The position numbers were made by a program, and so were the translations under genes. The notes under the pieces were generated by a model. The model saw only the letters and a list, made by a program, of their open reading frames with translations. It had not been told where the DNA came from and did no database searches. Of a DNA stretch of 64,000 bases, positions 4,390 to 55,510 are shown piece after piece. The stretch's first letter is position 1, and each line of letters opens with the position of its first letter. Location of the stretch: assembly GCA_040954595.2 (NCBI GenBank), contig CM082585.2, forward strand, positions 3,192,902 through 3,256,901, written 5' to 3'. This DNA is from Balanoglossus misakiensis. Taxonomy: Eukaryota; Animalia; Hemichordata.

Positions 4390-5930
4390 ATTGCTCATCT
4401 TCAAGGACTTAAAAACATGAATGGCTAGAGAAAGTGCAAGAACCATATGGTGAGAAGTAAACAATGCTAAAACTGAGCTTCAAATTACCAGATTGGCAGA
4501 AGAACCAAACGATATCATCAGATAAATCACTATACATGAAATGGTGACATTTTGAAAAAGTGCGGTATGTACAAAACACCAATTCTACAAGACGGACGGC
4601 TAAGTTTCTTTTTTTAGGCCGACAATGATGAAAATTAAGATAACCATCAAGCTCGTAATTACCTTCCTGATTCCAAGTTTCCGCCAGAAAAATTACAACG
4701 TAGTTTCTTATGTATGATAAAAACTCGAGATTTCCTCATTTGGACTTCAGTCCGTTCACATTCCAGACAACAAAATATACATTTTCATATGAGTTGACAG
4801 AACTATGAATAACGCCTGCGGATCCTTTTTTTGGAAAAGGAACGAAGGCCTTGGCCATGATCCTATGGTTTCGAGAATTTGGCAATGTCATTTCTAATAT
4901 AATCATATACAGAAGTATCCTGTTCGATGACAAACGAAGTGAAGCAGTTTTACCGTTTGATCTAGCCACAGCTAGAAAATGGTGGACTCTTGGTGAAAGG
5001 TCTTCGGCAACTCTGTAGTCAGAGGAACGCAGTTTGTCCCGCGAAGCTTGTAAAACTTGTTGCCTGTCTTTATACTCGATAATTTCACTATTACAGTCTG
5101 AGGACGTGATTTAGTTTTGAGTCTGTGGGCTCGCTGTATATCAATGTCTTTCGGCAAATCAAGTTGGTCAGAATTTACTTAACCCTAACCCTCCTGTGTG
5201 ATACCGTGAAAATAAGATTGGTCCTACGAAGTTGGCCGTCTTGGCTATATATCCTGTTCCCCTTCCGTCTTTTGAAGTCTCCAACGAAGCTCATTGTTCT
5301 CTGCTTCTAGTTCAGCTATGCGTTGACCTGCTTCTTCCAGACGCTTTAATTTCACTGGAATCACTATCCTCTTTCCTTTCTAGCCTGGTAAAACTGTCCA
5401 CAATGGAAGCTTGCAATGTAGTCGGCTTCGAGGTGATGAAGGCTTTCAGTTCGTCTACGCCAGCGTTGCTTTTATGCGTGTCGTCAACAGGTGGCTCGGC
5501 TGATGAAGTGCCACGTATAATATTTGCATCTGACGTTGACACTATACGTAGAGTGTCAGTCAACTTCGTTTGTCTTGTCACACATCTTTCTCCTTCAGCT
5601 TGTACTTTGATTGATCCTTTAGGCCCAGGGTTTGACTCTACATCTCCACTAACTAGTAGATTCCCAAGTACTAAAATCCGTGGAGCAAGGCTTACATGTA
5701 TTATGCCATTACTTAATCAAACATGTCTTCCGAACCGTCTCCCATGCAGATCGCATAGGTTGGATGAAACAGACGACTTTTTGACGTCATTGATCAACTG
5801 AAACTCATATTGATGATGAAGGGACGCCTTGTAGGTTTAATTGTGATTTCGGTTGAGAATCAACCCTCAGAGTCAAGTTCTGACAAGAAAAATATGACAT
5901 TAACTGCACATCGAAAAGACGACGGTGCTC
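4390..5930 (-). mobile_element. Degenerate 5' part of a non-LTR retrotransposon related to the element at 10328-15170 (ORF1 with 2A motif plus start of the APE domain)
   Basis: ORF1 relic starts at ATG 5808. It contains GDVESNPGP at 5621-5647, DIDIQRAHRLKTKSRPQTVIVK, TAG at 4863-4865, then FVVWNVNGLKSK and DDIVWF..IVYFSP. Multiple stops and frameshifts. Confidence 0.85.
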
Positions 5931-8560: not shown

Positions 8561-10471
8561 GAATATTTGCAAGTAGAACACATTCGTGGTCTTGTGTCTG
8601 TGATTGTACTGAGAACATGAAAACTGAAAGCACTAACGGCTACATGTGCATATATGGGGGCCCCAGACTCCAAAGTCGTTTGGACAATTAGGTAAATGTT
8701 GAGGAAAACTCTTTAATCTCGTTTTCCCATCCCTCTTGAACAAACCCTCAGTATTCCCTTTCAATTACCAACAATTCTTAAAAAACATTACGGAGTAAAC
8801 AATGCCAACACCAGGTAATAGTAGCATAGACATTGCTATTTTCAATTTCTGCAGGTTAATTTGCATAATTGTGCCCAGCATTAGTAGATACCTCATAATT
8901 ATTTTGTATTTAGATAAAATAAATTTATGCAAACAGTGTACACATAATGCTGGTACGTTCAGTACAGTTAAATATCGAAGTTTTTTTTAACTTTATGCCT
9001 TTGTTGTAATTATAGATTGAAATGAAGATACGACATACGAATATTTCTGCAATAGTTACACTTTTTCACCTAAAGAAACCTAAAATTGTTTCATAGTACT
9101 ACACATTTGTGGACTAAGTTACATTATCCAAAAGCCACTTCATGCAGCACATATATATTTCAGCAAATTGTAATACAATTGTAACTTTGACAACATTCGT
9201 TGTGGACAGGACGAATGTAGGCGGCATAAAGATACACCATCTGAATTTCTCAGTGTCGTTCACACCTGGTGGGCTACTGTTTGGTAATTTACCATCTCAG
9301 TTTAAGAGACCCGGCAAACAAATCAACACCAGTCAGTACCAATTTCAAAAAAACATAATAGGACTATAGAAACATCATGAACCCCACCCAGACGGTTCTA
9401 TAATATTGAACGTTGATTCTTACTTTGAAAATCGATCCGTCTAATTTTTTTGTGTCCTGGCTGACTGTTTCTACTAGAGTTTTCTAGTTGATGTTGTCGC
9501 TTCATAAATTTGGTAAAGGGTTAAATTCTGATTAGTCCTGTTCGAAAGACCACGTGATGACACGTACACACTTGTTTGCATCAGATTAATGCTGTCTTCT
9601 TTTATTGGCGTCATTTTCTAATACATTTCTATGAAATGCACTACTAGTCCATGAACTTTAAAGACAAATCTATTCCATCAATCAGGCAGCATAGAAATTA
9701 CAGTATGATAACTCCTCACCAAAGCGAGGGATGGCATACAGGCAGGCGCCGTTGCGGACGGAAGAAGTAACTGGTTTGATCGGATTCCATGAAAAGAGAC
9801 CAGAGAATGCGTCGTCACATTCCGATTCCTGAAAAGTAATATACATGTAATAGCATTAATTACGAAAAAATAAAGATAAGGTTTAATCTCAACAACAAAT
9901 GAATTACATCGAGGTGTATTGATTTTCAAAGACGCAAACTTTGTTATGCAAAGTAGGGCCATGTCGGCTCATGTCATCAGAGGTTTAGCTCAGATCGCGA
10001 GATCGCATCGTAATATTTTGAGAACACTGGCAATAGCGAGAGATTTTCTATGTTCTGAAAACTTAATGTTTTGTTATTCTGACAAAATTTCGGAAGGATA
10101 ATACACTGAAGTGCCAGAATGTTGAAAAATCACCACGTTTCGGCGATCATAACCCAGCCCTGGCGATGGTGTTCGATGTTTACAAACAGAATATAGTAAG
10201 GTTCGATTGAGGGGAAACTTGGGGATCTTATTATTCTGAGTGCTTATTTGCATATGAGCTTACAAAGATGCCAGAATTATTAATGCCCGGACCACTTAGA
10301 ATACAGTGGTACATATGCCATGATAATAATAATAATAGTTTATTCAGATACAATATAGGCCACCGGCCTCTGTGTATACAAACTAGTACGTCACCTGAAA
10401 TCTCCGGAGGACGCAAAAATGTAAAATAATTGTCGAATTACATCATGGCCATGAAAAAGGAAAGAAACGAA

Positions 10472-13400
10472 TCACACTTCAGATCGTTTTTTCGTGGCAA
10501 AAAATACAAATTTTGACAGATTACGCAAGATACTTGGGTTACATGATTGCATGAGGAGGTAAAATTTATCGTAGGTTGGCATAAAATAGTAATATCTAGG
10601 AATATACTTGACTCGTAAATCCGCATAGAATGGACACACAATACAAAAGTGAAATTCATCCTCTATCTCATTACCATTACAATAGATACATGTTCTATCT
10701 TCACGATTATTGCGTAATCGCCTGTCAGCTTCGATACGTAAAGCGTGCGCTGATATTCTAAATCTACAAAGTGCCTCTCGAAAGTGCGACTTTTCAATCA
10801 TGTTGAAATACAATTCTCGTCGAAAAATATGTTTGAACTTTCTGTAAGAGTCTAGTTTAGGAAACAAACGTAGACTAGTATGCCAGTTTTGAACATCTAG
10901 ATCGTGACAACGCTGTTTGAATAAGGAAATAAAATTGACATTGTTACCAACCCCCTGATTAACCCATGCCTCACCCATTCCATAGGAAAAAAGTAACATT
11001 TTCACATCGTGAGCCCAACATGTTTTGTTCTTTTCCGCTTCTCCATACTGGAATACATAACATTTGTATGGTAAACGATTAACTGGCATTGCCAGTAGAC
11101 GCAACCAGTAATTGATTATTCTTATAAGCCTATTAGATCGTAAGGGGTACCGCCCAAGTTCACCTTTCACAGCGAGAGTTGGTGCATTTTTGTACAACTT
11201 CAAAATAAAACGACAAAATTTGTTGTGAACAATTTCAATTTGGTCTCCTCTGTGGAATCCCCAAATTTCACTACCATACAAAAGAATTGGGAGGATTTTA
11301 CAATCGAAGATTTTAAAGGCCAAGTTCACATCAATATCCCCAAACCTTGCAAGAGATTGCTTAATACAAAACAATGCCATGGATGCTTTGCTGGCTAAAT
11401 GCCGTTGTGCATGATTCCATAACCCAAAATTAGCAAGAACAACCCCAAGATAGTTATAGTGGGGGACGACTTCGAGTTTTTTCCCATCTAGAAACCACTT
11501 TTCATATGAGCGTAGCCTTCCCCCATGTCTAAAAACGACAATCTTTGATTTAGAGGTATTAACCTTGAGTTTCCATTTTGTTGCATACATTGATAAATTA
11601 TTAAGGAGACGCTGCAAACCAATAGCAGTGGTGCTAAAGAGTGACAGGTCGTCTGCAAATAATAAATAGAACAGTTTGATATTTGCGATATGAACACCGG
11701 CAAAGTCATGATAAAGAGCTTCCCCTATATCATTTACAAATAGGGTGAACAAAAGAGGTGACAAAATACTTCCTTGCTGCACTCCAAGTTGACATCTAAA
11801 GAAATCAGTGATACCAACAGGTGTATGAATACAAGCTTTAACATTATCATACATTGAACGTAGGACGGTGAATAGTTTACCCTGCAACCCTATTTTTGCC
11901 AGTTTATAAAATAACATGTAATGGTTGATTCGGTCAAAGGCTTTCTCAAAGTCTATGAATGCACAGTAAAGTCTCCCACTTAGAGACATATAACGATTAA
12001 TGATGGTATTTAAAATAAAAATGTTATCAATAGTAGAATAGTGTCTTCTAAACCCAGCCTGTTCTTCAACAAGGGGATAGTAGAGTTCGACCCATTTGAG
12101 TAATCTACAATAAAGAATGTCACTATAAATCTTACAGATAGTCGGCAGTAAAGTTATACCTCTATAATTGTCAACACTATCTCTACAACCTTTTTTATAC
12201 AGTGGTACAATTAGACCTTCAACCCATTGGTCGGGAAACAAACCCGTAATTAAAATTTTGTTGTACAACTGTAGTAAAAATTGTCTGAAAATAAGCGGTG
12301 AATGTTTTATAATTTCAGGTGAAATGCCATCAATACCTGGAGCCTTGTCTACTTTCAAGCGAGAAATCGCACTATCAAGTTCGTCCATTGTAATTTCATG
12401 GTCAAGAATTTCTATACCAGGGTCAAGCTCTGGTGAAGTATCCAGGTTTTCCAAAAACAACTGTACTCCATCATAAAAGGAAGAATCCCCATGGGTGTTA
12501 CCCCGTGGTTCCGACTCTGAAAACAGTTTCGAAAAGAAAGCATACCATTCGTCTAACTTAATATTCGTAGACGGGAAGCTAGTTTTGGTTTTGAAAAGTG
12601 CCCAAAAACTTTTGGAATTAGGATATGTAGCAGCAATTGCAAGTTTATCCTTTTCATTCTCTACAAAATTACGTTTCTTATCTTTTAAAAGAGATTGATA
12701 AGACTTGCGTGAGGCAATATAATTATTAAGACTATCTTGATTCTTAGTGTTACGATAGTGTCTCAGTGCTTTAAGAACATGTCTTTTAGTATTGTTACAA
12801 TCCTTATCAAACCAAATCTTCTTTCTCTGACCAGTGTGATTAGAAAATTTGTTTTTCACTTGCATACAATCAGTGGAGTTTTCCAACATTTTAACAAGCA
12901 CGGCTGCAGCAGCCGAAATATTCTCTACATTAAGGTAAACATGAAATTCTTCTGAAAGTACGCCAAAGTTTTCACCGATCCAAAACTGATCAAAACTATG
13001 ACTAAAATCATTATTCCAAAAGCGTCTGGTGGGAGGTTCCATTACACCACTATTAATGTCACCACCATGCATAGATCTGCCTTTCAGAGTGAACCTGATT
13101 GGCAAATGATCGGACTCAGGTCTCTCAAGCACATTAAAGTCACTAAATACATCAAAATTGTGGAAAAAGGAGAGAACATAGTCGATAACGCTTGCACCAG
13201 AATGTTTGATACACGTAAAATGACCAATTCCTTCATCTCTAAAAAGTCTACCATTAACTATTCTGAGGCCGGTATTGACGCATAATTCTAAAAGTAGATG
13301 GCCATACGAATTTACTATACAATCATTGGAAAATCTTGGTGGTGGTGATGGTAATTGATCACATGACAAGTACGTATCATTTACGAAAACATCATCTCTA

Positions 13401-13831
13401 TTGTCGTCTTGAACAAAGTCTGGCTTTATTCCCGTTCTGGCGTTGAAGTCTCCACAGACAAAAAATTTACGGTCAGGATATTTGGCCATATTTTTAACCA
13501 ACTCATCCTCTAGAACGTGAAAACTGGACTCGTTGGAATACGTGCTTGAGTTTTGGGGCGAAAAGTAAACAATAGCGAAACAGAACTTCAGTTCGCCAGA
13601 TGTGAAAAGAAACCATACAATGTCGTCTGTTACATCACTGCATGACGTGGCGGTATTTTGACAACTGTGGGATCGATAAAATATGCTAATGCCTCCAGAT
13701 GGACGGCCCAGATGTTTACGCTTGGGACGGGTTTGGTGAAAATTCTCATAACCATCCAATTTAAATACACTATCAGGAGAATTCCAAGTTTCCGTCAGTA
13801 AAATAATGTCAAACGTTTTAATAAATGCCAT
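10472..13831 (-). CDS. LINE ORF2: APE endonuclease, reverse transcriptase and C-terminal Cys/His motif
   Basis: LTETW, GDFNAR, IDY, SDH (APE); KAPGIDG, NYRGITL, FIDFEKAFD, GVQQGSILSP, LFADD, YLG (RT); CIYC..EDEFHF...C. The frame stays open upstream to 13966 and includes WNVNG. Confidence 0.95.
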   Translation of the reverse strand: MAFIKTFDIILLTETWNSPDSVFKLDGYENFHQTRPKRKHLGRPSGGISIFYRSHSCQNTATSCSDVTDDIVWFLFTSGELKFCFAIVYFSPQNSSTYSNESSFHVLEDELVKNMAKYPDRKFFVCGDFNARTGIKPDFVQDDNRDDVFVNDTYLSCDQLPSPPPRFSNDCIVNSYGHLLLELCVNTGLRIVNGRLFRDEGIGHFTCIKHSGASVIDYVLSFFHNFDVFSDFNVLERPESDHLPIRFTLKGRSMHGGDINSGVMEPPTRRFWNNDFSHSFDQFWIGENFGVLSEEFHVYLNVENISAAAAVLVKMLENSTDCMQVKNKFSNHTGQRKKIWFDKDCNNTKRHVLKALRHYRNTKNQDSLNNYIASRKSYQSLLKDKKRNFVENEKDKLAIAATYPNSKSFWALFKTKTSFPSTNIKLDEWYAFFSKLFSESEPRGNTHGDSSFYDGVQLFLENLDTSPELDPGIEILDHEITMDELDSAISRLKVDKAPGIDGISPEIIKHSPLIFRQFLLQLYNKILITGLFPDQWVEGLIVPLYKKGCRDSVDNYRGITLLPTICKIYSDILYCRLLKWVELYYPLVEEQAGFRRHYSTIDNIFILNTIINRYMSLSGRLYCAFIDFEKAFDRINHYMLFYKLAKIGLQGKLFTVLRSMYDNVKACIHTPVGITDFFRCQLGVQQGSILSPLLFTLFVNDIGEALYHDFAGVHIANIKLFYLLFADDLSLFSTTAIGLQRLLNNLSMYATKWKLKVNTSKSKIVVFRHGGRLRSYEKWFLDGKKLEVVPHYNYLGVVLANFGLWNHAQRHLASKASMALFCIKQSLARFGDIDVNLAFKIFDCKILPILLYGSEIWGFHRGDQIEIVHNKFCRFILKLYKNAPTLAVKGELGRYPLRSNRLIRIINYWLRLLAMPVNRLPYKCYVFQYGEAEKNKTCWAHDVKMLLFSYGMGEAWVNQGVGNNVNFISLFKQRCHDLDVQNWHTSLRLFPKLDSYRKFKHIFRRELYFNMIEKSHFREALCRFRISAHALRIEADRRLRNNREDRTCIYCNGNEIEDEFHFCIVCPFYADLRVKYIPRYYYFMPTYDKFYLLMQSCNPSILRNLSKFVFFATKKRSEV

Positions 13832-13966
13832 GAAATCAGGATTTCCCCATTTGTTTTTTAACCCGTTTACGTTCCACAGAACAAATGATACATCCGTAGA
13901 AAGATTGACAGGACAACCAGATGTCGTTACCCTAGAATTACCAAATACAAGGCCTCGGCCTAAATC

Positions 13967-15019
13967 CTATCTTTTAGCAATTGACCTTATGTCTTTTTTA
14001 GCACTATCGTATACAAATACTTCGTTTTCTATGACAAGTTTGTTATACCGTAGTGTGGCTCTTTTACCCTCCTCCTTGGCTTTTGCGAGGTAGTGTCCCA
14101 ATTTTCTCCTGGTTTCGCGAACCAGAGGTGGAAAGTCTTCGGTTATCCTGTAGTTTGAACCCTGTAGTTTCTCGCGTGCAGCTTGAAGTGTTTGTTCCCT
14201 GTGCTTGTACTTCGTAAATTTAACTAGAACTGGTTGTGGTCGCGATCTTGTTCGTAGTCTATGCGCGCGATCAATTTCGATGTCGTTGTTGCTCAAGTCA
14301 AGTTCATCTGAAATAATTCCACGTACTTTGCGTTCACAGTCCGCCCAACTTTCTTCGTCGCTATCTTGGGAAATTCCATGAATCAGTAAATTGTTTCTGC
14401 GTAGTTGTCCTTCTTGCCTGTCTTGTTCTTGTTCCGTTCTCTGGAGTCTATTACGGAGTTCAATGTTTTCCGCTTCCAGGTCCGCTATTCGAGAATTTGC
14501 TTCTTGCAACTGCTTCTCAACATTATTCAACCCTTCTTTAATTTCCTTCGAGTCAGTATCCATTTTTGCTTCCATCTTACTGAATCTATCTTCAATGGAT
14601 AACTGAAGTGTGGTTATTTTGGAATCGATAAACGATTTCAGTTCATCAATCAAGCTGCCGTCGCCCTTGGCAGGAATGGTGTCACTGGCTTGTCCGGGTG
14701 CTTCGGCGGCGGCGATGGCGGAGCCGGCTGTAGAATTCGAAGGTGCCTTGTTTGCAGTTGTCTTATCATACATTGTTTCTGTCAATTTCGACTGCCTTGT
14801 ATTATATCCTGGTTCTTGTCGTTCTTTCGAGGACTTTGGGCCCGGATTAGTTTCGATATCGCCACACGTCAGCATGCATAATAATAAGGTGACACGTATA
14901 GCAAGACTCACGTGTAACTTGTCCGTTGGCAGGCCAGCTCGTTCTCCTAACCATTTGCCTTGTGTGGGTTGTAGAAAACAGCCAATTTTTTGACGCCACT
15001 GGTTCACAGACACGCCCAT
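13967..15019 (-). CDS. LINE ORF1: N-terminal 2A-like peptide, coiled coil and L1-ORF1p-like RNA-binding domain
   Basis: LLLCMLTCGDIETNPGP at aa 45-61; heptad region; RRNNLLIHGI, IDRAHRL, PQPVLVKF, RITEDFP. Confidence 0.9.
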   Translation of the reverse strand: MGVSVNQWRQKIGCFLQPTQGKWLGERAGLPTDKLHVSLAIRVTLLLCMLTCGDIETNPGPKSSKERQEPGYNTRQSKLTETMYDKTTANKAPSNSTAGSAIAAAEAPGQASDTIPAKGDGSLIDELKSFIDSKITTLQLSIEDRFSKMEAKMDTDSKEIKEGLNNVEKQLQEANSRIADLEAENIELRNRLQRTEQEQDRQEGQLRRNNLLIHGISQDSDEESWADCERKVRGIISDELDLSNNDIEIDRAHRLRTRSRPQPVLVKFTKYKHREQTLQAAREKLQGSNYRITEDFPPLVRETRRKLGHYLAKAKEEGKRATLRYNKLVIENEVFVYDSAKKDIRSIAKR

Positions 15020-16448
15020 AACGTATAGCCACGTCTTTAGGTAGACGTTTAGGTGCTATAAGGAAGGTTTTTGGCTACCAAAAACTGCAAGGGTCCAAGT
15101 TTATGGTGAAATTTTTACAGAGCGTTGTTGCGTGTGCTTCTCACCGAACGGCTTGAAGTGCGCCCTCCCCATGCCATGATAATTGTTAACAGCAGACAAA
15201 CCTTGCAATGATAAGCGGTAATTCCGTTGGCATATTGTGTCAAATCACATTTCCCACAACTGGTAATCAACTTGCTTCCGTCACCAGGGCCCTGTATTTA
15301 GTATAATGAAAAATACGCCTGACAAGTACCTGATTTGTCAAATTTGTGGAACTGTCTATATAATCGTGTGGTGTATAAAAATATTACTTGTCTTACAGAT
15401 TAGTTTCCTTTTAATACGAGACATATGTTGTGGTAGTGTTGAGATGTGAACCTATGGGGGTGTCATGGCATATCTCGCTTTTACATAAGTTATACAGAAA
15501 CATATAGACAGGCAAAAACTTAAGTCTTCATGCATGAATACCAGATTATCTGATAATCACCCAGTATTTCCAGAATCAACAGGTGATTTACACACCTGCA
15601 GATAGCTTTTGTTCGTTAGGCATAAGGCCGGGAAAAGAAATGCGATGCGAAATAATAACGAAAGGATGACTAGGTCTATCATTTTACGCACCATATCGAT
15701 ATCTTCGGAGAGGCGTCTGTCAAATATCCCAACACTTGAAAAACTGGTATCGGTCTTAAAGCACGCGGCGTACGTACTCGAATTTCGACCCCTTTCCTGC
15801 ACAAGACCAGCCCTGACGTTATTAACTTTGGCGAGCCGCTCTGAAGTATACTTCTCTGTTAATGCACATTCTGCGTAATAGATTCCGTCGTCGGCGTTCA
15901 CATCAACATTGCACTTTTCACCGTGAATAGCTGAACTTTTCTCCCCATCCTCTCCCTTCACCATGGCTCCACTCGCATGAAATCCATTGTCTGCATTAAC
16001 CATGGATCCACTCGCATGAAAAGATATCAACACAACAATTGTTGTGGCGGCAATTCGGTGAAATGACTGAGGTGATAAAACAGGAATTACTGACTTATGA
16101 GATTTTGTCGTCTTATAATATTTCAATGGTTTCATTATTATTAATCACATTATTCTGCTCGTTTCACATTTTTTTTTGTTAGACTTGCCATTGTTTATTA
16201 CCAGTATATATACCTCTTTGCTCACATCATGCCCATGATTAGTAAATACCTCATAATTATTTTGTGATTTGTCGCCTTATGAATTTACCAAAGGGTTTTA
16301 ATCTGATATCTCCGGGTCGAAAATACCACGTGATGAAAAAGTACACAATTGTTTACACAAGACAACTTCTTGTCTTATTTTTATTGACGTAACGTACTAA
16401 TGTATTCCCATGAAACTCAGTTTGAATTTAAAAGACAAATCAATTTCA

Positions 16449-23947: not shown

Positions 23948-25133
23948 CCACGAACCTGTAGAACCACGAACCTGTAGACGTTGTTAAACATCACAATTAT
24001 CTTGGTATTATTTTCTCTTCAAGGTTATCCTGGTCACCGGCCAAGGATAACTTGGTGACAAAAGCAAACAGAGCTCTATACCAAATACAAATTGTTATAA
24101 AGAAACTGGGTGGAATTCATCTAAATCAGGCTTTCAAGCTATTTGATACAACTGTAGTTCCAATACTTTGTTATGGAGCAGAAATTTGGGGATATGAGTA
24201 TTCACTTGTAATTGAAAGGGTACAATTTAAGTTCTGTAGATTTCTTTTGGGTGTTAACTCCAGTGTAAACCATGAAGTTCTGCTCGGGGAATGTGGAAGG
24301 TTGCCACTCTCCTGCACATACACGAAGCGTTGTATTTCATACTGGCTTAAACTACTAAAGATGGATAATTCTCGATACCCAAAAGCCTGCTACGAAATGT
24401 TAAGAAATTTAGACTCCGCTGGGAGAGTTACATGGGCAACAAAGGTACGAGAATTATTGTTCAAGTATGGATTTGGAGTTGTCTGGTTTGAGCAATAGGT
24501 GGGGGAGTCAAACATGTTTTTGAAAATGTTCCATGAACGGTTACGTGATTGTTGCAGACAGGAATGGGCAGCTTCAATTAATGATTCCCACAGATTGCGT
24601 CAGTATGCTCAATATAAATCCATGCTTGAACCTGAATTATACTTGTCATGTATTAAAATTACAAAATTTAAATTTGACCTGGCACGTCTTCGCTGCTCAA
24701 GTCATAAGTTAGCCGTTGAAAAGGGACGGCACTGTACGCCATCTATTCCCTTGTGTCAGAGAACATGTCCCTACTGTGAAAAGCAAGGTATAGCAATTGT
24801 TGAGGATGAGTGTCATTTTTTGCTATTTTGTCCATTGTATGAGGAGGAGAGGTCTAAGCTTATTCCTCTAAAATTCCGTATTAACCCTACACGGGAAAAA
24901 TGTTTTGCTCTGCTAACTTCTAAAACTCAGCAACTTCAATATACACTTGCAGTTTTTGTTCATAAGTCTTTTAAGAAGCGGGATTACTTTGTACAGCAGC
25001 AAATGCAGCGAAATTGATACGTTGGCTTATAGTTTGTGATTCCATGTATTTTTTTTTTCTCTCTGAGGGTGGAATGTCTTTGTGTGATGGGCTGAGGCCC
25101 TGACATTTGAAATAAACATTATTATTATTATTA
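23948..25133 (+). mobile_element. 5'-truncated non-LTR retrotransposon (same broad clade as 10328-15170)
   Basis: PILCYGAEIWG, LGECGRLPL, LARLRCSSHKLAVEKGRH, CPYC..EDECHFLLFCP; in-frame TAG at 24496-24498; AATAAA plus (ATT)n tail. Confidence 0.9.
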
Positions 25134-25932
25134 TATTTAAAACATATTTATAAGCACCGAGCTATATTTGTCTGTAAAATATTAAATGCGGTAGCGCCAT
25201 ATTGGAATATGTGCAAGTAGAACACATTCGCGGTCTTGTGGCAGTGACTGTACTGCGCATATGGAAACCGAAAGCACAGACGGCTGGATATGTAAATTTA
25301 GGGCCCTGGCCCTGGACTCAAAAGTCGTCTGAACAATTACTTATAGTATGGAAAATGTTACGTTCTCTCTGGCCCTTTCTTACACACATATCCGTCTAAA
25401 GCTTTGTGTATATTGGCCGGCTCACCATATAAAATGTATTGTTTACGAATGTCCAATCGGGATATTTTTTACATGAGTTTTACTGGAGGTATTGTCGCTC
25501 GTCTATTTTCGGCTATGTTCATATTCTCTTAGCTGACTCATACATTTATGTGGTAAAACCGTACGAAAACCAGGAAAATGCATCATTCTCTCATGTTTCT
25601 TGCATATAACCTGTAGTGGTGGGCAGGTAGCCACATGACATATACAAATGTACGGGGAAAATACTGCAACTTCGTTTTCTTTTACCATGCATGACACAGC
25701 GTGTCCACTAATATATGAGCGGGTGTTATAGGAAAAAGTGTTATTTTAATAGTTCTCCGGTTCAAAAATACACGTGATGGAATAAGAGTATATACTTGCT
25801 TACACGAGACAACAATAGGCTATGTACTTTTATTCTTTTATTGGCATAATTTTCCCGTGAAACTCAGTACAGTTTCGATTTCTCTACGAACTTTACTAAA
25901 AAAATCCATGTCATCCAGAAAATTAACCAAAA

Positions 25933-26050
25933 TTAGGGAATATAGAAATTGCAGTAGAAGATCACTTCACCAAAGTAAGAGATAGCATCATGCAGACAAA
26001 CGCCGCCAGGCAAGGAAGAAGTAACTAATTTGATGGGAGCCCAGGAAAAA
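25933..26050 (-). pseudogene. Orphan exon 4 remnant (A8-type) lacking its acceptor
   Basis: Reads FSWAPIKLVTSSLPGGVCLHDAISYFGEVIFYCNFYIP*. Similar remnants lie at 29528-29645, 52070-52188 and 54913-55030. Confidence 0.7.
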
Positions 26051-26416
26051 CAATAAAACATAATTATAACTGTGACAACATTTGTTGTGGACAGGACGAA
26101 TGTAGGCAGCATGAAGATACACCATCTGAATTTTGTCAGTGTCCTATACACCTGGCGGGCTATTGTATGGTAATTCACCATCTCACTTTGAGAGATCCGG
26201 CATATCTGACTATTGCGGGATCTACATCTGCTGTATGTCTGCCAGAGCGCCAATCAACACCAATCAGTACCAATTTCAAGAAAACGACACTACTTTACAA
26301 TTCCTTTATAGACATTATTTAATCCATTCCTCTAAAACGCAATACAGTTTGATTATAATTATTCCACGAACTTTACACGTCAGAAAAATCCATGTCCTCA
26401 AGATAATTCACCAATT

Positions 26417-27911
26417 TTAGAGGAGATAGAAATCGCAGTAAAAGAACTCCTCACCAAAGCGAGGGATGGAATACAGACAAGCGCCGTCAGGGACGGAAGA
26501 AGTAACTGGTTTGAATGGAACCCAGGAAAAGGGCCCCGAGAATACCTCGTCGCATTCCGTTTCCTGAAAAGGGATGGGAAAGGGTTGGTTGTTAATCTTT
26601 ACAGATGGGAAGGTCTACAGTGAGACAGGTGGATGACATTCGGTGGCGTTTTATTTTTTATAGAAAATGCTGAATTGATTGGTAGTCTATCTTCTATACA
26701 CAACGGAAATTTTCCATATTTACTCAGACATGTTTCCCAGACTCTAGTACGTTGAAATTTTCCACCGGCCAGTGCGTGCTTTTTTCAATTCTGTTTGTTT
26801 TGGCCTGCGAAAACAACACTGAAAAACTAGAATAATGCTTTCTATCCTGTCTTGATTTTTTCAGGCAACATGCATTTTGATATTGTATTATATATTTATA
26901 TACACACCTTGCAATGATAAGTGGCAATTCCGTTGGCATACAGTGTTGCGTCGCATTTCCCACATCTGGAAATCAACTTGCTTCCGTCACCAGGGCCCTG
27001 TATTTAATAGAATGGAAAATACGTTAGACAAGTACCTGATATATGTGAAACTTTCTACATATAATTGTTTATTATATAAAGCATCACTTGATAATACTGA
27101 CAGATTAGTTACTTTTAACAGAAATATTTGGTTGCGGTGTTGAGATATGAACCTTGGAGGGGATCTCATGATAGACTTCAATTCTACATAAACTAAATAA
27201 TTTCAGATAGTCAATATGGGATTTATAATACACGTCGGCAGAGAGCTTTTAAGTCCCCAAACGGCGACAGGAGAGTAAGAATTTACTCACCAGGTCGATA
27301 TAATCGGAAGGGTGCTTGTGGGTTATTATAACTGTTGAAAAATTAGTATCGGTCTTAAAACCCGTAGCGTATGTAGTTGAACCTCGACTTCGTTCCTGAA
27401 CAAGACCGGTCCTGACGTCATTGACCTTGGCAAACAGCTCTGACGGACACTCCTCGGTTAATTCACAGTCCAAGTAATTCAATCCGTTATCTGTGTTCAC
27501 ATCAACCTTGCATATTATACCAGGACAATCTCGATTTATCTCCCCGTTCTCTACATTCACCACGGCTCCACTCTCATGAAATCCATTGTCTGCATTAACC
27601 ATGGATCCACTCGCATGAAACGATATCAACACAAATATTGTTGTGGCGGCAAATTGTTGAAATGTCTGAGATAGAAAAAAAAAGATGAACTTAAATTAAA
27701 AGTTTAGAAAAGTTTACATCATCTTTTTTCTGTATTGGTAAAATGTATTGGTCGTATTCGCTCTATGCCTAGTGTTTTCTTGCCTAATGCCATCTGTGTC
27801 AAAACGTACCAAGATACGACAATGACCAGGAAACCAAACACGATGCCATGTTCTGGCCAAGCTTGACTGAACACTTACCATGATTCTATATGTGTTGTAT
27901 GAACGTACCAT
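26417..27911 (-). CDS. Array gene A6, 204 aa
   Basis: Exons 27911-27909, 27665-27291, 26997-26908, 26563-26417 (TAA); open frame. Confidence 0.8.
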
Positions 27912-30004
27912 TGTGTGCATGTTACGTACGAGTGCAAGCATCGACAGCAAGGTTTGAAAGTTTTTGACTTGTAGATGAACAGCGTGCAAATTTGTATCCG
28001 TAAGCACCAATTTATTTTTGTCATGGTTTTTATTTCTGTCTGTAAAATATTAAATGCGGTAGTGCCATATTGGAATATGTGCAAGTAAAACACATTTCGT
28101 ATCTTTTGTGTCTGCGATTGTCGTTCGAACACGTAAACTAACAAAACTGGACATATTGGGGTCCTAGATCCTTGGACAATTACGTGAGGCGCGGAGAGTT
28201 TATACAAACTTCGTTCGCATTTCTCCATTCTTATAACTCTATATGCTCATGCCCGGCATTAGTATGTACACCATGATTATTTTCTATAAAGGAATTTTTG
28301 ACCACATGCGGTTACGGGTACTAAAATTAAATATACAATGGTTGTGTATTTTTGTTAAAACTTTATTACTTCGTTTGCGTTTGTATTAATAGATTTATTG
28401 AAGATACAGCATTCGAATATTTCTGCAATGGATACACTTTCTCACGTTAAAGGGACACAGTTGCCCTCTATTCGCCAATTTTCTTTGTTTGGTACGAAAA
28501 TGGTCTGTGCCGATGGGACATTAGCTGTATGGTATGATATGCTGTATGCTGGGCATTTCTTCATACTTCAAATATTTGAACAAAAAACTGCAGTACATGT
28601 AGATACACAAAACAAAAATACTGAAATATTAGCGTAAAGTTACAGCTAATGGAGCTTTAAATACTAGCCAACTGTCAACAAATTCAACTTGCTTGTAGAC
28701 AGACAAGATTAAACAGTTACGATATCAACACAACTATTGTTGCGGCGGAAAATCGTTACATGTGTATGTAAAATATTAAATGCGGTAGTGCCATATTGGA
28801 ATATGTGCAAGTAGAACACATTAGCGGTCTTGTGGCAGTGACTGTACTGCGAACATGGGAACCGAAAGCACAGACGACTGGATATGTAAATTTAGGGCCC
28901 TACCCCTGGACTCAGAAGTCGTCTGAACAAGTATGTATAGTGAGGAAAATGTTACGATCACTCTTGCCCTTTCTTACACACAGATCTCTTTAAAACGTGT
29001 ATTATGACTGGCTCACCATATAAAATGTATTGTTTACGAATGTCCAATCGGGATATTTTTTTACATGAGTTTTACTGGAGTTCTTGTCGCTCGTCTCATT
29101 TGGGTTATGCTTATATTCTCTTAGCGGACTCATATGTGGTAAAAACGTAAGAAAACCAGATAATGCATCATTTTCTCATGTATCTGGCATATAACCTGTA
29201 GTGGTGGGCAGGTGGCCACATGACATATACAAATGTACATAAGAAATACTGCAACTTCGTTTGATTTTCCACGCATGACACAGCACGCAAAATTAAGGGA
29301 GCGTGTGCAAAAATACATGAGCGGGTGTTATTTAGGAAAATGTTTTATTCTCCGGTTCAATAATAACACGTGATGGAATTAGAGTATACACTTGTTTACA
29401 CGAGACAACAGTAGGCTATGTACTTTTCTTCTTTTATTGGCATAATTTTCCCGTGAAACTCAGTACAGTTTCGATTTCTCTACGAACTTTACTAAGAAAT
29501 CCATGTCATCCAGAAAATTAACCAAAATTAGGGAATATAGAAATTGCAGTAGAAGATCACTTCACCAAAGTGAGAGATAGCATCCTGCAGACAAACGCCG
29601 CCAGGCAAGGAAGAAGTAACTGGTTTGATCGGAACCCAGGAAAAACAATAAAACATAATTATAACTGTGACAACATTTGTTGTGGACAGGACGAATGTAG
29701 GCAGCATGAAGATACGCCATCTGAATTTGTCAGTGTCCTATACACCTGGCGGGCTATTGTATGGTAATTCACCATCTCAGTTTGAGAGATCCGGCATATG
29801 TGACTATTGCGGGATCTACATCTGCTGTATGTCTTCCAGAACGCCAATCAACACCAATCAGTACCAATTTCAAGAAAACGACACTACTATACAATTCCTT
29901 TATAGACATTATTTAATACATTCCTCTAAACTCAATACAGTTTGATTATAATTATTCCACGAACTTTACAGAAAAATCCATGTCCTCAAGATAATTCACC
30001 AATT

Positions 30005-32067
30005 TTAGGGAAGATAGAAATCGCAGTGAAAGAACTCCTCACCAAAGTGAGTTATGGCATACAGACAAGCGCCGTCAGGGACGGAAGAAGTAACTGGTTT
30101 GACAGGAACCCAGGAAAAGGCCCCCGAGAATACTTCGTCGCATTCCGTTTCCTGAAAAGGGATGGGAAAGGGTTGGTCGTTAATCTTTACAGATTGGAAA
30201 GTCTACAGTGAGACAGGTGGATGACATTCGGTGAAGTTTTATTTTTTTTAAAGTGCTGAATTGATTGGTAGTCTATTTTCTATACACAACGGAAATTTCC
30301 CATATCTACTCAGACATGTTTCCCAGACTCTAGAACTTAACCGTACGTTTAAAACTGTGCGTGATATTTTTCAATTCTGTTTGTTTTGGCCTCCGAAAAC
30401 AACACTGAAAAGCTAGAAAAATGATTTCTATCCTTCCAGATTTTCAGGCAACATGCATTATGATGTTGTATTACATATTGACATCAAAGACAAAGCGCAT
30501 TATAATAATGGTTCACAATACAAACCTTGCAATGATAAGCGGTGATTCCGTTGGCATACAGTGTCCCATCGCATATCCCACAACTGGAAATCAACTTTCT
30601 TCCGTCACCAGGGCCCTGTATTTAATAGAATGGAAAATACGTTAGACAAGTAACTGATATTTATCAAAGTTTTAAAACTTTCTATGTAATCGTTTATTAT
30701 ATAAGGCATCAATTGGCAATGCTGACAGATTGATTACTTTTAACATAAATATTTGGTGGCGGTGTTAAGATATGGGCATTAGAGAGGGGTTTCTGCTGGG
30801 TTCACATCTAGGCCCACAGCTAGGTAAAACTAATCCCGATGATTGTGACAAGATAAGCTAATCTTTTGTCCCCGTTCACATTGTGTTTGGCACAGTTCTC
30901 GACAACGTCGTCTCGCCAACCTTTGACCTTATAAAGCAGAACCATGTTGGTCCTCTTCTGGTTGTTTATGCGATTTTCACCATTGTCAAATGATAGACTA
31001 CACTGTTTATGTCAGTTGTAAAATGTGTCAACTAGGACCAGAGGCTGACAAAAAATGCGTCCACACACACCAGGCTGAGATCAGAGTCGACCACAAACCA
31101 CCCCATTCAACTGGGAATAATTGTCCGGACAAGGGTCGGCCAGACCCGTTCACACCTGTTGCCTAGCCTTTTTGAGTAATGTGAACGGCCTATTCATGAT
31201 AGACTTCATAACTACATAAACTAAATATTTTCAAACAATCAATATGAGATTTATAATACCCGTCGGCAGACAGGTTTTAGTCGCCAAGCGGAGACAGAAA
31301 GGATATAAGACTTAACTCACCAGGTCGATAGTATCGGAAGGGTGCTTGTCGGATATTAGAACACATGAAAAACTAGTATCGGTCGTAAAACCCGTAGCGT
31401 AAATATTCGAACTTCGACTTCGTTCCTGGACAAGACCGGTCCTGACGTCATTGACCTTGGCAAACAGCTCTGACGGATACTCCTCTGTTAATTCACAGTC
31501 CAAGTAATTAAATCCGTCATCTGCGTTCACATCAACATTGCATTTTAAACTTTTCTCCCCATCCTCTTCCTTCACCACGGCTCCACTCGCATGAAATCCA
31601 TTCTCTGCAATCACCATGGATCCACTCACATGAAACGATATCAACACAACCATTGTTGCGGCGGCAAATCGTGGAAATGTCTGAGATAGAACAAAAAAGA
31701 TTATGAACTGAAATTATGAGTTTATATCATGTTTTTCTTATTAAAATTGTTGCATCATTTCCACTATTCTGCTTTGACAATGTTCTGGTAAAATGTATAT
31801 GTTTAAATTAAACAGAGACCACAAAGGTACTTTACTGTGTTACTTTGAAAAAAAAACCTTTTTCACAATTCCTACTGAGTCACGATTAAAAATGGCTGTC
31901 CCTTTGGTCGTATTCGCTGTATGCCTAGTGGCTTCTTGCCTTATGCCAATTGTGTCAGAAAGTACCAAGATACGACAATGATCGGGAAATCAAACACGAT
32001 GCCATGTTCTGGCCAAGCTTGACTGAACACTTACCATGATTCTATAAGTATTGTATGAACTTACCAT
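30005..32067 (-). CDS. Array gene A7, 199 aa
   Basis: Exons 32067-32065, 31680-31321, 30615-30526, 30151-30005; open frame. Confidence 0.8.
30797..31191. mobile_element. MITE-like insertion in intron 2 of A7, shared with A14 (about 56187-56585)
   Basis: Ends gggttcacat..atgtgaacggcc (PIF/Harbinger-like TIR, inferred). Absent from intron 2 of A6, A12 and A13. Confidence 0.55.
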
Positions 32068-32865
32068 TGTGTGCATGTTACGTACGAATGCAAGAATCGA
32101 CAACAAGGGTTGAAAGTGTTTGACTCGTCACTTTATAGATAAACAGCGTGCAACTTGTATATCCGTAAGCACCAAGTTATTTTTGTCATGGTTTTTATTT
32201 CTGTGTGTATAAAATTAAATGTGGCGGCGCCATATTGGAATATGTGCTAGTAAAACACATTTCGTATCTTTTGTGTCAGCGATTGGCGTTCGAACAAGTA
32301 AACTAACAAAACTGGACATATTGGGGTCCTAGATCCTTGGACAATTACGCGTGGAGCAGAAAATTTATACAAACTTCGCTCACATTTCTCCATTCCTATA
32401 ACTCTCCGGCATAAGTATGTACATCATGATTGTTTTGCATTCTATAAAGGAATTTTAGACCAAATGCGGTTACGGGTACTAAAGTTAAATATACAATGGT
32501 TGGGTATTTTTGTTAAAACTTTATTACTACGTTTGCGTTTGTATTAATGGATTGAAATGAAGATACAGCATTCGAATATTTCTGTAATAGATACACTTTC
32601 TCACGTTAAAAGGGACAAAGTCGCCCTCTATTCGCCATTTTTTTTCGAACTAAAACTGTCTGTGCCGATGGGACATTAGCTGTATGGTATGATATGCTGT
32701 TTGTTGGGCATTTCTTCAAGCTTCAAGGATTTAAACAAAAAAACTGCAGTAGATACACAAAACAAAAATACTGAAATCATAGCGTAAATTTAAGGTAATG
32801 AAGCTTTAAATACTAGCCAACTGTCAACAAATTCAACTTGCTTGTAGACATACAAGATTAAACAG

Positions 32866-33114
32866 TTACGATATCAACACAACTATTTTTGCAGCGGAAA
32901 ATCGTTGAAATGTCTGAGATGGAAAACAGATGTAATGACAATGAGTATATACCGTCTTAACCTTATTTAAATGAGTGCATTTTTTCACAAAATCATGAAT
33001 CTTGTAGCAAGACAACATATATAAGGACATCAAATAGGTTGGTCCGTTCCGGCCCAGCATGCCCGAACATTAACAATTTTCGCATAAGTGCAAATACAAT
33101 AGTCGACTTACCAT
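32866..33114 (-). pseudogene. Truncated array copy: exon 1 plus the first 15 codons of exon 2
   Basis: ATG|gtaagt at 33114-33112, acceptor before 32913, TFQRFSAAKIVVLIS then TAA. A shorter relic of the same junction lies at about 28727-28757. Confidence 0.7.
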
Positions 33115-33935
33115 TGTGTGCGTATTACATTCGAATGCAAACATCGACATCAAGGTTCACCTCAGCCATGTTGAACCTTAACTCGCCACTTTATATACAT
33201 TGTATATAAAAAAGTATTAATAAGCACCGAACTATATTTGTCTGTAAAATATTAAATGCGGTAGTGCCATATTGGAATATGTGCAAGTAGAACACATTCG
33301 CGGTCTTGTGTCAGGGACTGTACTGCGAACATGGGAACCGAAAGCACAGACGGCTGGATATGTAACTTTAGGGCCATGCCCCTGGACTCAAAAGTCGTCT
33401 AAACAATTACTTATAGTACGGAAAATGTTACGTTCTCTCTGACCCTTTCTTACACACATATCCGTCTAAAGCTTTGTGTAAATTGGCTGGCTCGCCATAT
33501 AAAATGTTTTGTTTACGAATGTCCAGTTGGGAGTTTTACTGGAGGTCTTGTCGCTCGTCTATTTTGGGATATGCTTATATTCTCTTAGCAGTCTCATATG
33601 TGGTAAAAACGTAAGAAAACCAGGAAAAATTTTCTAATGTTTCTGGCGTATAACCTGTAGTGGCAGGTAGCCACATGACATATACAAATGTACATAATAA
33701 TTACTGCAATTTCGTTCGCTTTTACCATCCATGACACATGTGTTATTTTAATAGTTCTCCGGTTCGAAAATAACACGTGATGGAATTAGAGTATTCACTT
33801 GTTTACACGAGACAACTATAGGCTATATACTTTTCTTCTTTTATTGGCATAATTTTCCTCGTGAAACAGAGTACAGTTTCGATTACTCTAAGAACATTAC
33901 AGAAAAATCCATGTCATCCAGAAAATTGTCCATAA

Positions 33936-36304
33936 TTAGGGAATATAGAAATTGCAGTAGAAGATCACTTCACCAAAGTGAGAGATAGCATCCTGCAGAC
34001 AAACGCCTCCAGACAAGGAAGAAGTAAGTGGTTTGATGGGTACCCAGGAAAAAGGACCCGAGAATGCGTCGTGACATTCCGTTTCCTGAAAAGAGATGTG
34101 TATACTGTAGTTAGGAAAAGCTTAGACAGACATACATCGGAATGGCATAAGATCACATTTTTTGATGTTGTATTATTATAATGGTTCACAGTATACAAAC
34201 CTTGCAATGATAAGCGCCAACTCTGTTGTCATACAGTGTCACATCACAGTGCCCACAACTTGAAATCAACTCGCTGCCGTTACCAGGGCCCTGTATTCAA
34301 TAATAATAGAATTGATTAAAGCTGCAAGCAGCATTGAAGGGACCCAAGCAAATAGAGATAGTCATGACTAATCCATTGCATCAAATGCCAATGCTGTAAC
34401 TGCTGTGGATGCTGAGATATGGGAAAGTTTGTCAAAGGTCACCTGAGGCCACCCAAAATTTGGAATAAAAATTGTGACTCCATATTGGTCCATGTGCAAC
34501 AGAAACCAAACTTCTAGCCCATTTGGTTAGCCTGGATTTAGGTATGCACATAATTAATTAGCTAAGCAGGTGTCACAGGTGATCCCCGAATTTGGCATTA
34601 CATTATGGTCCCATCCCTCTAAACGCCAAGTATGAACCTGCTCTGGATGCTGAGATATGGGGAAAGTTTGTCAAAGGTCACCTGAGGTCACCCAAAATTT
34701 GGAATAAAAATTGTGACTCCATATTGGTCTATGTGCAACAGAAACCAAACTTCTAGCCCATTTGGTTAGCCTGGATTTAGGTATGCACATAATTAATGAG
34801 CTTAGCAGGTGTCACAGGTGATCCCGGAATTTGGCATTGCATTATGGCCCATCCCTCCAAAGGCCAAGGCTGTACCTGCTCTGGATGCCGAGATATGGGA
34901 AAGTAGGTCAAAGTTCTCCTGAGGTAACCCAAAATTTTTGGGGGAAATGTTGACTCCATAATGGTCCATGTGCAACAAAAACCAGACTTCTAGCCCTTTT
35001 GGTTAGCCTGGAATTAGGTATGCACATAATTAATGAATTAAGCAGGTGTGACACACAGGTGACCCCCGAATTTGGCTTTTTATTTTGGTTCCATACTGCT
35101 CACTGGCCCATAGACAGTCACTGTCCAGGACCATTGCACATTCCAGACTTCCACAATAAGATGCGAACATAGGCCAACTGGTTGGTCCAAAGGCCATAAA
35201 AAATATGGAAAAAATATTATAAAAATTATCTTCTTAAAATTGACATGGCCTAGGCTCTTGACATTTAGCATACAGGATCTTGGTGATATGGTCTTCAAAG
35301 TTTAAGAAAAGAATTTTAATGCTGCCATTCATATGCAAATTAGGCCAATTTGAAAATTTTGATCGGATATAGCAACCAGGTCACGTGACTAATTACAAAT
35401 TAAAAGGTCAGGTGCACGAGTACTCATTGACCCCTGACCACCATGCTAAGTTTCAGAAGCACAGCTGCAGCGGTTTTTGAGATTTACATGGGCAAAAAAA
35501 ACGACTCAAGAAGAAATAAGAAAAACTCCAGCAATTACAATAAGGACCCAAGCGCCTGAGGGCACCTGTTTAACATTAGTCAAACTTCTATATAAAATAA
35601 TAAGAAACGGCGACAAGAATGACATGTCTACATGGATTGAATCCGTATTATCCGCTAATCACTCAGTATTTTCAGACAGTCACCAAGGGATATACACTGG
35701 GGCCGACAAACAAAATTTGTTTCATAATCAATATGAAAGAATTACTAAGTTAGCCAAGATTTTACTCACAAGATCGATATCATCGGAAAGGCGCCCGTCT
35801 ACTATTGCAACAACTGAAAAACTAGTATCGGTCTTAAAGTCCACAGCGTACGTATTCGAACTTCGACTTATTTCCTGGACAAGACCAGCCCTGACGTCAT
35901 TGGCTTTGGCGGACAGTTCTGCATGACACTCCTCTGTTATTTCACAGTCTGAGTAATGCATTCCGTCATCTGTGTTTACATCCACTTTGCATATCATACC
36001 GGGACAATCTGGACTGTTCTCCCCATCCTCTCTCTTCATCACGGCCCCACTCGCATGAAGTGATATCAACACAAATATTGTTGTGGCAGCAATTCGGTCA
36101 AATATCTGAGATGGAAAAACAGACAATGAGTATATGCCGTGCTAACCTTATTTAATTGAGTGCATTTTCGAAAAAATCATGAATCTTGTACCAAGACGTC
36201 ATGTATCGGGACATCAAACAGTATGGTCAGTTCCGGCCCAGCATGCCCGAATTTTAAAAAAATTTCGCATACGGTAAGTGCAAATACTTTAGTCAACTTA
36301 CCAT
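33936..36304 (-). CDS. Array gene A8, 192 aa (variant exons 3 and 4)
   Basis: Exons 36304-36302, 36105-35770, 34290-34201 (GPGNGSELISSCGHCDVTLYDNRVGAYHCK), 34085-33936; open frame. Confidence 0.8.
34310..35565 (-). mobile_element. Helentron/DINE-like insertion with about three internal 238-bp tandem repeats, in intron 2 of A8
   Basis: ggatgc.gagatatggg recurs at about 34407, 34645 and 34883. ggacccaagc occurs at both ends and there is a terminal hairpin aagctgcaagcagc. Related to 52-1044. Confidence 0.6.
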
Positions 36305-54300: not shown

Positions 54301-55510
54301 AATTGTATCCGTAAGCACCAAGATATTTTGGTCATGATTTTTATTTCTGTCTGTAAAAAAAATGTGGCGGCGCCATATTGGAATATGTGCAAGTAAAACA
54401 CATTTCGTATCTTTTGTGTCAGCGATTGTCGTTCGTACACGTAAACTGGACATATTGGGGCCCTAAATCCTTGGGAAATTACGTGAGGCGCGGAAAGTTT
54501 ATACAAACTTCGGTCACATTTCTCCATTCATATAACTCTATATGCTCATGCCCGGCATTAGTATGTGCATCATGATTGCATTTGCATTCTATAAAGGAAT
54601 TGTATACAAAATGCTGTTACGGGTACTAAAATTAAATATGCAATGGTTTGGTATTTTTGTTAAAACTTTATTACTTCTTTTGCGTTTGTATTAATAGATT
54701 GTAGTGAAGATACCGCATTGAATTTCGAATATTTCTGCAATAGAAAATAACACGTGATGGAATTAGAGTATACACTTGTTTACACGAGACAACAATAGGC
54801 TATGTACCTTTCTTCTTTTATTGGCATAATTTTCCCCGTGAACCTCAGTATAGTTTCGATTACTATACGAACTTTACAGAAAAATCCATGTCATCCAGAA
54901 AACCAACCAAAATTAGGGAATATAGAATTTGCAGTAGAAGATCACTTCACCAAAGTGAGAGATAGCATCCTGCAGACAAACGCCGCCAGGCAAGGAAGAA
55001 GTAACTGGTTTGATCGGAACCCAGGAAAAACAATAAAACATAATTATAACTGTGACAACATTTGTTGTGGACAGGACGAATGTAGGCAGCATGAAGATAC
55101 ACCATCTGAATTTGTCAGTGTCCTATACACCTGGCGGGCTATTGTATGGTAATTCACCATTTCAGTTTGAGAGATTCGGCAGATCTGACTATTGCGGGTT
55201 CTACATCTGCTGTATGTCTGCCAGAACGCCAATCAACACCAATCAGTACCAATTTCAAGAAAACGACACTACTATACAATTCCTTTATAGACATTATTTA
55301 ATCCATTCCTCTAAAACGCAATACAGTTTGATTATAATTATTCCACGAACTTTACAGAAAAATCCATGTCCTCAAGATAATTCACCAATTTTAGGGAAGA
55401 TAGAAATCGCAGTAAAAGAACTCCTCACCAAAGCGAGGGATGGAATACAGACAAGCGCCGTCAGGGACGGAAGAAGTAACTGGTTTGAATGGAACCCAGG
55501 AAAAGGGCCC
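49825..55510. repeat. Near-identical tandem duplication with a 2843-bp period
   Basis: Identical ORF translations offset by 2843 (50437/53280, 51383/54226, 51959/54802); a few differences in a T-run and in exon 4. Confidence 0.9.
52548..54215 (-). CDS. Array gene A13, 199 aa
   Basis: Exons 54215-54213, 53825-53466, 53170-53081, 52694-52548; open frame. Confidence 0.8.

Follow-up and report, generated by a model that had tools for sequence, protein, structure and literature searches.

How is the polymerase of a LINE produced when its reading frame continues that of ORF1, is split from it by a single stop codon and offers no ATG ahead of the first endonuclease motif? The question arises from an element on the minus strand of the window, by which we mean the whole stretch of 64,000 nucleotides analysed. 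ORF2 translation in LINEs is called unclear in the accessible part of PMC3708506, and the worked cases use reinitiation. For the present locus an initial annotation had proposed either readthrough of the TAG or reinitiation at a non-AUG codon, and had pointed to a palindrome 3′ of the stop and to a diverged copy with a similar context.

Architecture of the element

The locus is an APE-type LINE (Table 1), as it combines APE and RT domains with a target-site duplication, a 3′ tail and 5′-truncated copies and carries no LTRs. The Pfam match of ORF2 to PF03372 (E=5e-15) begins at residue 31, corresponding to profile position 3, and is accompanied by a match to PF00078 (E=1.4e-32). A PDB profile search with the endonuclease yielded weak exonuclease III matches only, whose coverage leaves out the first strand. 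ORF1 comprises 362 codons from stop to stop, its database relatives align from the methionine at 15019, and its similarity to PF02994 (E=0.006) falls short of the cut-off; past the TAG, 1,164 further codons of the same frame are open, as far as 10472. The depth of matching contigs climbs from 5′ to 3′, in one run from 30 to 311 and in a second from 94 to 1,262, and a family with 5′-truncated copies should show this pattern; three contigs that run from the 3′ flank directly into the duplication suggest empty sites.

Table 1. Coordinates of the LINE, its predicted recoding signals and its decayed relative (positions of the window).
Feature	Position	Strand	Remarks
Full-length APE-RT type LINE	10328..15170	-	4,843 bp; bordered by a 13-bp duplication; two unbroken ORFs
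5′ copy of the target-site duplication	15171..15183	-	13 bp
ORF1	13967..15019	-	350 aa from the first ATG (15019); coiled coil and L1-like RNA-binding domain
Candidate 2A-like StopGo motif GDIETNPGP	14837..14863	-	close to the N-terminus of ORF1
UAG stop, predicted readthrough site	13967..13969	-	context UAG-GAU
Post-stop element with GGCC-GA-GGCC	13945..13962	-	predicted 5′ arm of the long-range duplex
45 ATG-free codons	13832..13966	-	include the first endonuclease motif FVLWNVNG (13885-13862)
ORF2	10472..13966	-	APE endonuclease, reverse transcriptase, Cys/His-rich C-terminus
Predicted 3′-terminal stem-loop	10342..10383	-	GGCC-GGT-GGCC at the tip
Predicted 3′ arm of the long-range duplex	10377-10356	-	inside the 3′-terminal stem-loop
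AATAAA and short (ATT)n tail	10328..10344	-	3′ end of the element
3′ copy of the target-site duplication	10315..10327	-	initial bases also readable as tail
Decayed relative	4394..5795	-	2A-like motif, ORF1 stop TAG (4865-4863), endonuclease start

On the basis of general features of these groups we presume that the element belongs to the L2/Crack/Daphne group of the Jockey superfamily; the trees described below contain unnamed loci only. A Tnp22-type ORF1 is reported for L2 and CR1 subgroups in the accessible text of PMC4120745. The 2A-like motif fits the pattern D(V/I)ExNPGP after a hydrophobic helix, as judged from sequence alone, and a 2A motif is by itself insufficient for skipping activity according to the available part of PMC3708506. 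The shorter pattern D[VI]ExNPG recurs in 74 of the 150 best ORF1 relatives, and a 2A-like motif is found at 7 of the 23 loci of the clade defined below (window, L007, L050, L058, L063, L091 and L094). Such peptides in LINE ORF1 are already described, as is evident from the accessible sections of PMC3708506 and PMC13405545; their presence in ORF1 of loci with a readthrough-type junction implies that two recoding signals may share one RNA.

The remainder of the window holds four further decayed or truncated LINE fragments, 23974-25140 (+), 45058-45948 (-), 45934-48043 (+) and 61244-62032 (-), the first of which has at its 3′ end a comparable GC-rich hairpin, AATAAA and an (ATT)n tail. Large direct duplications of up to 3.5 kb with 87-97% identity occupy 25100-34000 and 49800-58200; at 49825-56175 their period is about 2.84 kb. 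The one ORF tested in the duplicated regions had no Pfam match.

The junction between ORF1 and ORF2

Recomputed coordinates bear out the initial description of the junction: 45 in-frame codons without ATG follow the ORF1 stop, and FVLWNVNG occupies codons 28-35 among them. The conserved Asn of this motif is presumably catalytic and the counterpart of Asn14 of the L1 endonuclease. The first in-frame ATG is codon 46 (13831), 14 codons beyond the motif, and since the PF03372 match starts at residue 31, initiation there would indeed cut the endonuclease, as had been claimed. The sequence at the stop reads TAG GAT TTA GGC CGA GGC CTT. Near-cognate codons are available in frame after the stop, with ACG at +14 and +24 and CTG at +30; a stop-start coupling of the SART1 type is absent, no AUG of the ORF2 frame overlapping or neighbouring the ORF1 stop. 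The TAG is unchanged in the contigs that cross it, which come from two runs of a single sample that may be the very source of the window; one of these contigs differs at 13850 and 13949, the latter change being synonymous in the through-frame. Other copies of the element are viewed via the contigs of a single sample, and contigs drop rare variants.

The diverged copy that had been taken as a mirror of the junction shares the motif (TAG GAT CAT GGC CAA GGC CTT, at 4865) but not the frame. Its motif Trp lies 97 nt past the TAG, compared with 90 nt in the intact copy, so that the junction is off by 1 nt, and its endonuclease motif shares a frame with an ATG at 4858. As its ORF1 alignment is broken by frame shifts into four pieces and a stop interrupts its endonuclease, a 1-nt indel arising from decay is plausible, and the relic is therefore usable neither for nor against frame conservation. 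Judged by sequence comparison, the evidence beyond chance is that of related families, not of the relic. At about 4390-4050 (-) the relic endonuclease breaks off into a different open frame, which to our eyes resembles a gag-like protein; the break-off suggests a nested insertion.

Conservation of the junction among related families

Two sets of relatives were compared. The first was collected with an endonuclease alignment, the 80 best of whose 333 metagenome matches were taken along with 10 contigs of prokaryote assemblies; seven loci with a partial endonuclease or without upstream DNA were left out, and the motif position was set by hand in two. The resulting 83 loci form, together with the window, 62 families at 60% identity, 42 of which (window excluded) were compared, namely those with 150 or more codons in an upstream ORF. 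The ORF1 stop stands directly in the ORF2 frame in all 25 families without an ATG ahead of the motif, as against 1 of 17 with such an ATG, where the stops are distributed 6/6/5 over the three frames. The sole exception among the loci is L018, which is ATG-less with ORF1 out of frame; a mate with an ATG stands for its family in the count. The junction stops of the 25 families are TAG-G (21), TAG-A, TAG-C, TGA-C and TGA-A (one each), and TAG-G occurs at 1 of 40 control stops. The terminal stops of ORF2 in the same elements are TGA (6), TAA (4) and TAG (1), with TAG-G at none of the 11. Eight more ATG-less families have no long upstream ORF in the available DNA, and five of these also show TAG-G. 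Of the 25 readthrough-type upstream ORFs, 24 are recognised by a home-made profile built on ORF1 relatives.

The second set, which comes mostly from one assembly, was drawn from the three assemblies behind the loci of the first (150 listed out of 291 LINE matches) and consists of 30 loci and 40 stretches near the top of the list from one assembly, picked by ORF2 similarity only. From 69 loci, 17 without an endonuclease start, two without upstream DNA, two duplicates and five mates of families in the first set were excluded. A single in-frame stop separates the ORFs at 39 of the remaining 43 loci (25 of 28 families); this stop is TAG at all 39 and TAG-G at 34 of them, and the terminal stop of ORF2 is TAG-G in 1 of 28. 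Over both sets the junction is TAG-G in 43 of 50 families, many of which continue with GAA or GAC. As the families are related and fall into few clades, their independence is overstated by nominal p values of 1e-10 to 1e-12; the paired comparison with ORF2's own stop is independent of origin counting. According to quick LG+G4 trees with midpoint roots, which cannot count origins, the window lies inside a clade of 22 rows (SH-aLRT 97), and the layout is present in several deep groups; the ORF2 of the families is only about 35-39% identical to that of the window.

Some loci deviate from this pattern. No single stop is found at L121, L139, L157 and L148. In the last of these (G002:C632) the homologous codon is TTC and one frame of about 1,490 codons is open, so that a natural ORF1-ORF2 fused ORF exists, and three mates of its family have TAG. 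The decayed L080 has TAT at the stop position. An in-frame TAG is combined with an ATG before the conserved Asn at L071, L119, L132, L134, L143 and L151, and at eight loci only 6-8 codons, none of them ATG, lie between the TAG and this Asn.

Several further observations concern individual loci. Three loci of one family, L131, L158 and L134, keep TAG-G with spacers of 75, 193 and 309 open codons to the endonuclease, the longest being Cys/His-rich. L071 reads TAG GGG GCC ACC ATG, so that a strong-context AUG comes after the in-frame stop, and L084 has a double TAG TAG after an ORF1 of 957 codons; both might possibly represent switches from readthrough to reinitiation. The prokaryote assemblies G001 and G002 contain 70 and 160 LINE ORF2 matches, many of full length; these LINE contigs are eukaryotic contamination.

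On the basis of these comparisons, ORF1 and ORF2 are very probably joined by programmed type III readthrough at UAG-G. The polymerase is likely to be reached in this manner because a single UAG splits one frame, usually without a start codon for ORF2. The type III contexts comprise UAG followed by GGV, GUA or GAU, and UAGGAU, the context in the window, is listed in the accessible part of PMC13517186.

The post-stop motif and its potential partner at the 3′ end

The palindrome noticed 3′ of the stop is present, but as a structure it amounts at best to a hairpin of 3-4 bp. Nested folding of the 90 nt after the stop gave no excess over shuffles (z +0.56 for the window; clade mean +0.31), so that the palindrome is not a strong local hairpin, and the strong local 3′ structure that the initial annotation had suggested looking for within 80 nt does not appear in these 90 nt. 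A local stimulatory structure of the nested kind was rejected on these grounds. Selection on the RNA is indicated by codon +3, which is GGC or GGT at 23 of 23 clade loci, while GGC otherwise makes up only 95 of the 591 Gly codons counted in the ORF2 of 14 members of the clade.

The motif GGCC-n2-3-GGCC occurs four times in 64 kb and only twice within the element, at 13960 and 10368. The second copy forms the tip of the 3′-terminal hairpin, 3.6 kb from the post-stop motif. Cofolding of the post-stop element with this hairpin gives -27.6 kcal/mol, compared with -17.3 kcal/mol for the two local folds; the hairpin is the best pairing site against 1,812 other windows of the downstream RNA, and the duplex in the window reaches z -3.5 relative to dinucleotide shuffles. 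The same hairpin precedes AATAAA in all six clade members with an available end and provides the best pairing site in four of them. Outside the clade, unrelated sequences are predicted to pair with their own 3′ regions, over 12 bp in L012, 9 bp in L025, 10-13 bp in L039 and L045 and 9-10 bp in L133-L135. At the 15 discovery loci it is at the post-stop position that the pairing signal is strongest (14 of 15 families; mean z -1.55). Pairing is also found in 3 of 12 controls of the ATG-bearing class.

Held-out support for the modelled pairing is modest and mixed. An ungapped-helix test was negative among the 27 held-out loci (p=0.41; cognate best in 4 of 27, 1.04 expected), and a location test scored 8 of 27 versus 2.06 expected, with one control offset giving 9 of 27. 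The shuffle-controlled test yielded a mean z of -0.80 (13 of 19 families, one-sided p=0.036), and 6 of 27 loci beat all 19 shuffles (1.35 expected); yet another test, whose null takes no account of base composition, has its peaks at offsets -12 and 0. Many of the held-out contigs have no visible 3′ end inside the tested window, and in L050 and L162 the terminal hairpin was noticed post hoc 598 and 1,132 nt past the ORF2 stop, beyond the tested windows.

In these models a distant partner, at the 3′ end, gives a better fit than a local structure, and it may well be that readthrough is stimulated by pairing of the post-stop element with the 3′-terminal hairpin of the same RNA, a proposal to which we give nearly an even chance. 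A substantial possibility, if somewhat below even, is that readthrough is real and the post-stop motif acts without pairing, serving either as a linear signal or as a look-alike of the 3′ hairpin that works as a decoy site. The motif indeed resembles the viral type III context UAG GGR NGU CAG (accessible part of PMC13517186), and a decoy would suit L2-clade LINEs, whose ORF2p binds the 3′ stem-loop (available text of PMC4176376). Moreover, the complementarity of the two palindromes follows from their being alike, and there is no cognate preference within the clade, cognate pairs being no better than non-cognate ones. Against these readings stand the 2-nt loop of the post-stop motif, which is unable to form the same hairpin, and the pairing of unrelated sequences outside the clade with their own 3′ regions.

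The sister lineage of L013, L018 and L022 differs in having ORF2 in the +1 frame. Its ORF1 ends with NTT-TAA or NTT-TGA, the ORF2 frame is already open 23-38 nt ahead of this stop, and a helix of 12-13 bp is predicted between the post-stop sequence and the ORF2 end or 3′ UTR. The three loci are candidates for a stop-stimulated +1 frameshift that might use the same long-range pairing.

Other explanations of the stop

It appears unlikely that ORF2 is produced by reinitiation after termination, or by internal initiation, at a non-AUG codon downstream of the ORF1 stop. Reinitiation is known for LINEs, being proposed for mammalian L1 and occurring with an AUG in SART1, which also requires a downstream structure (PMC5972666, PMC3708506, accessible parts), and the ACG and CTG codons mentioned above would be at hand in the window. 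It predicts neither the single frame, as the evenly spread stops of the ATG-bearing class illustrate, nor a fixed TAG-G, and it is difficult to reconcile with 6-codon spacers that share no common start codon and with the fused ORF of L148. Readthrough, by comparison, predicts a fixed frame, a fixed TAG and a fixed +4 G with no room for a start codon. Of the two solutions originally offered, readthrough is thus favoured by the retention of frame, stop and +4 G across 50 families, and non-AUG reinitiation is disfavoured.

A-to-I editing could convert UAG to UGG (Trp) in part of the RNA, with the long-range duplex as substrate, and the preferences of ADAR for UAG followed by G and for nearby duplexes would fit. 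We regard it as very improbable, since edited RNA would be copied back as TGG and the sense codons found are TTC and TAT. The contigs, which drop rare variants, show no variant at the stop, and the TGA members L015 and L063 retain the same downstream motif. Still less probable is that TAG/G is a splice acceptor, whose consensus it fits, with the AUG of ORF2 supplied by an upstream exon: a pyrimidine tract is lacking (0.417 at -25..-1 versus 0.436 background; 0.32 in the window), the TGA members have no AG, and splicing would leave ORF1 free to end elsewhere. The acceptor was rejected because of the missing tract and the TGA members.

A single-ORF element interrupted by a private nonsense mutation, for which the fused relative L148 could be quoted, and a host that reads TAG as sense are explanations of negligible probability: the private mutation, which the initial annotation had named as a case that would speak against it, is refuted by the recurrence of the stop in 50 families, and a variant code was rejected since the 1,526 codons of the through-frame contain exactly one in-frame TAG alongside 48 Gln codons. 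A search for fused or longer ORF1 relatives turned up nothing, which counts as weak evidence, and among the 150 best ORF1 matches in the protein library none is above 564 aa; a near-length word search gave two distant matches.

Proposed mechanism and its consequences

Consistent with readthrough of UAG-G, we propose the following scenario. Most ribosomes would terminate at the UAG and release ORF1p, and a few would insert an amino acid and go on to produce an ORF1-ORF2 fusion, the outcome being much ORF1p and little polymerase, as in gag-pol. If the post-stop element pairs with the 3′-terminal hairpin, a contact over 3.6 kb would favour full-length RNAs. The duplex between the stop and the 3′ end would compete with the hairpin fold that ORF2p is expected to bind, because ORF2p of the L2 clade binds the 3′ stem-loop (PMC4176376, accessible part).

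Taken further, it is conceivable, although we hold it rather more doubtful than not, that a large LINE lineage makes its polymerase only as a readthrough fusion gated by pairing with its own 3′ hairpin, and that the sister lineage may use the pairing for its +1 frameshift. Such a tombusvirus-like switch would license only full-length RNA and thereby explain cis preference. A widespread readthrough lineage would also mean that the active enzyme carries ORF1p at its N-terminus. Automatic gene calls would, if readthrough applies, clip the endonuclease; several database relatives start with a Met that replaces the Val of the endonuclease motif. Being both intact and compact, the element lends itself to direct tests of the stop and of the proposed switch in reporter and retrotransposition assays.

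Relation to known recoding systems

Among the openly accessible papers searched, none was found that deals with a UAG-G LINE lineage or with pairing between the stop and the 3′ end, and one review (PMC5009743) confines its coverage, in the part available, to HeT-A and TART. Mammalian L1 and SART1 share with the present element the bicistronic RNA, an L1-like ORF1 and a low ORF2 output, but their ORF2p is a separate product of termination-reinitiation at an AUG or close to one (PMC5972666, accessible part). LINEs of the L2, Crack and CR1 groups with 2A likewise carry a 2A-like peptide before the ORF1 coiled coil, and the accessible sections on them make no mention of readthrough of a stop between the ORFs (PMC3708506, PMC13405545). 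The only direct precedent found for readthrough in LINEs is the Paramecium non-LTR Group 3, in which ORF1 and ORF2 occupy one frame and read-through is suggested; it belongs to a separate ciliate clade, and in the available text the suggestion takes one sentence and no signal is described (PMC5405496).

Outside the LINEs, the gammaretroviral gag-pol junction corresponds in UAG-G, in a purine-rich stretch after the stop and in the fusion of structural and polymerase genes (PMC13517186, PMC3159437, accessible parts). It differs in that here a non-LTR element is concerned, nested folding detects no compact local structure, and the motif begins 6 nt after the stop instead of 8 nt, the distance at which the compact H-type pseudoknot of the gammaretroviral junction lies. 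The readthrough of tombusviruses requires pairing over about 3.5 kb with a 3′-terminal replication structure (PMC3234231, available text), and the CIRV polymerase offers the likeness of UAG-G together with a pairing of ~3.5 kb to a 3′ replication hairpin that involves mutually exclusive folds. In CIRV, as far as the accessible account extends, a large proximal stem-loop engages in a proven interaction, whereas the present element has a short motif near the stop and a predicted one. The feature described here is real and conserved, and is probably a known recoding mechanism in a new setting.
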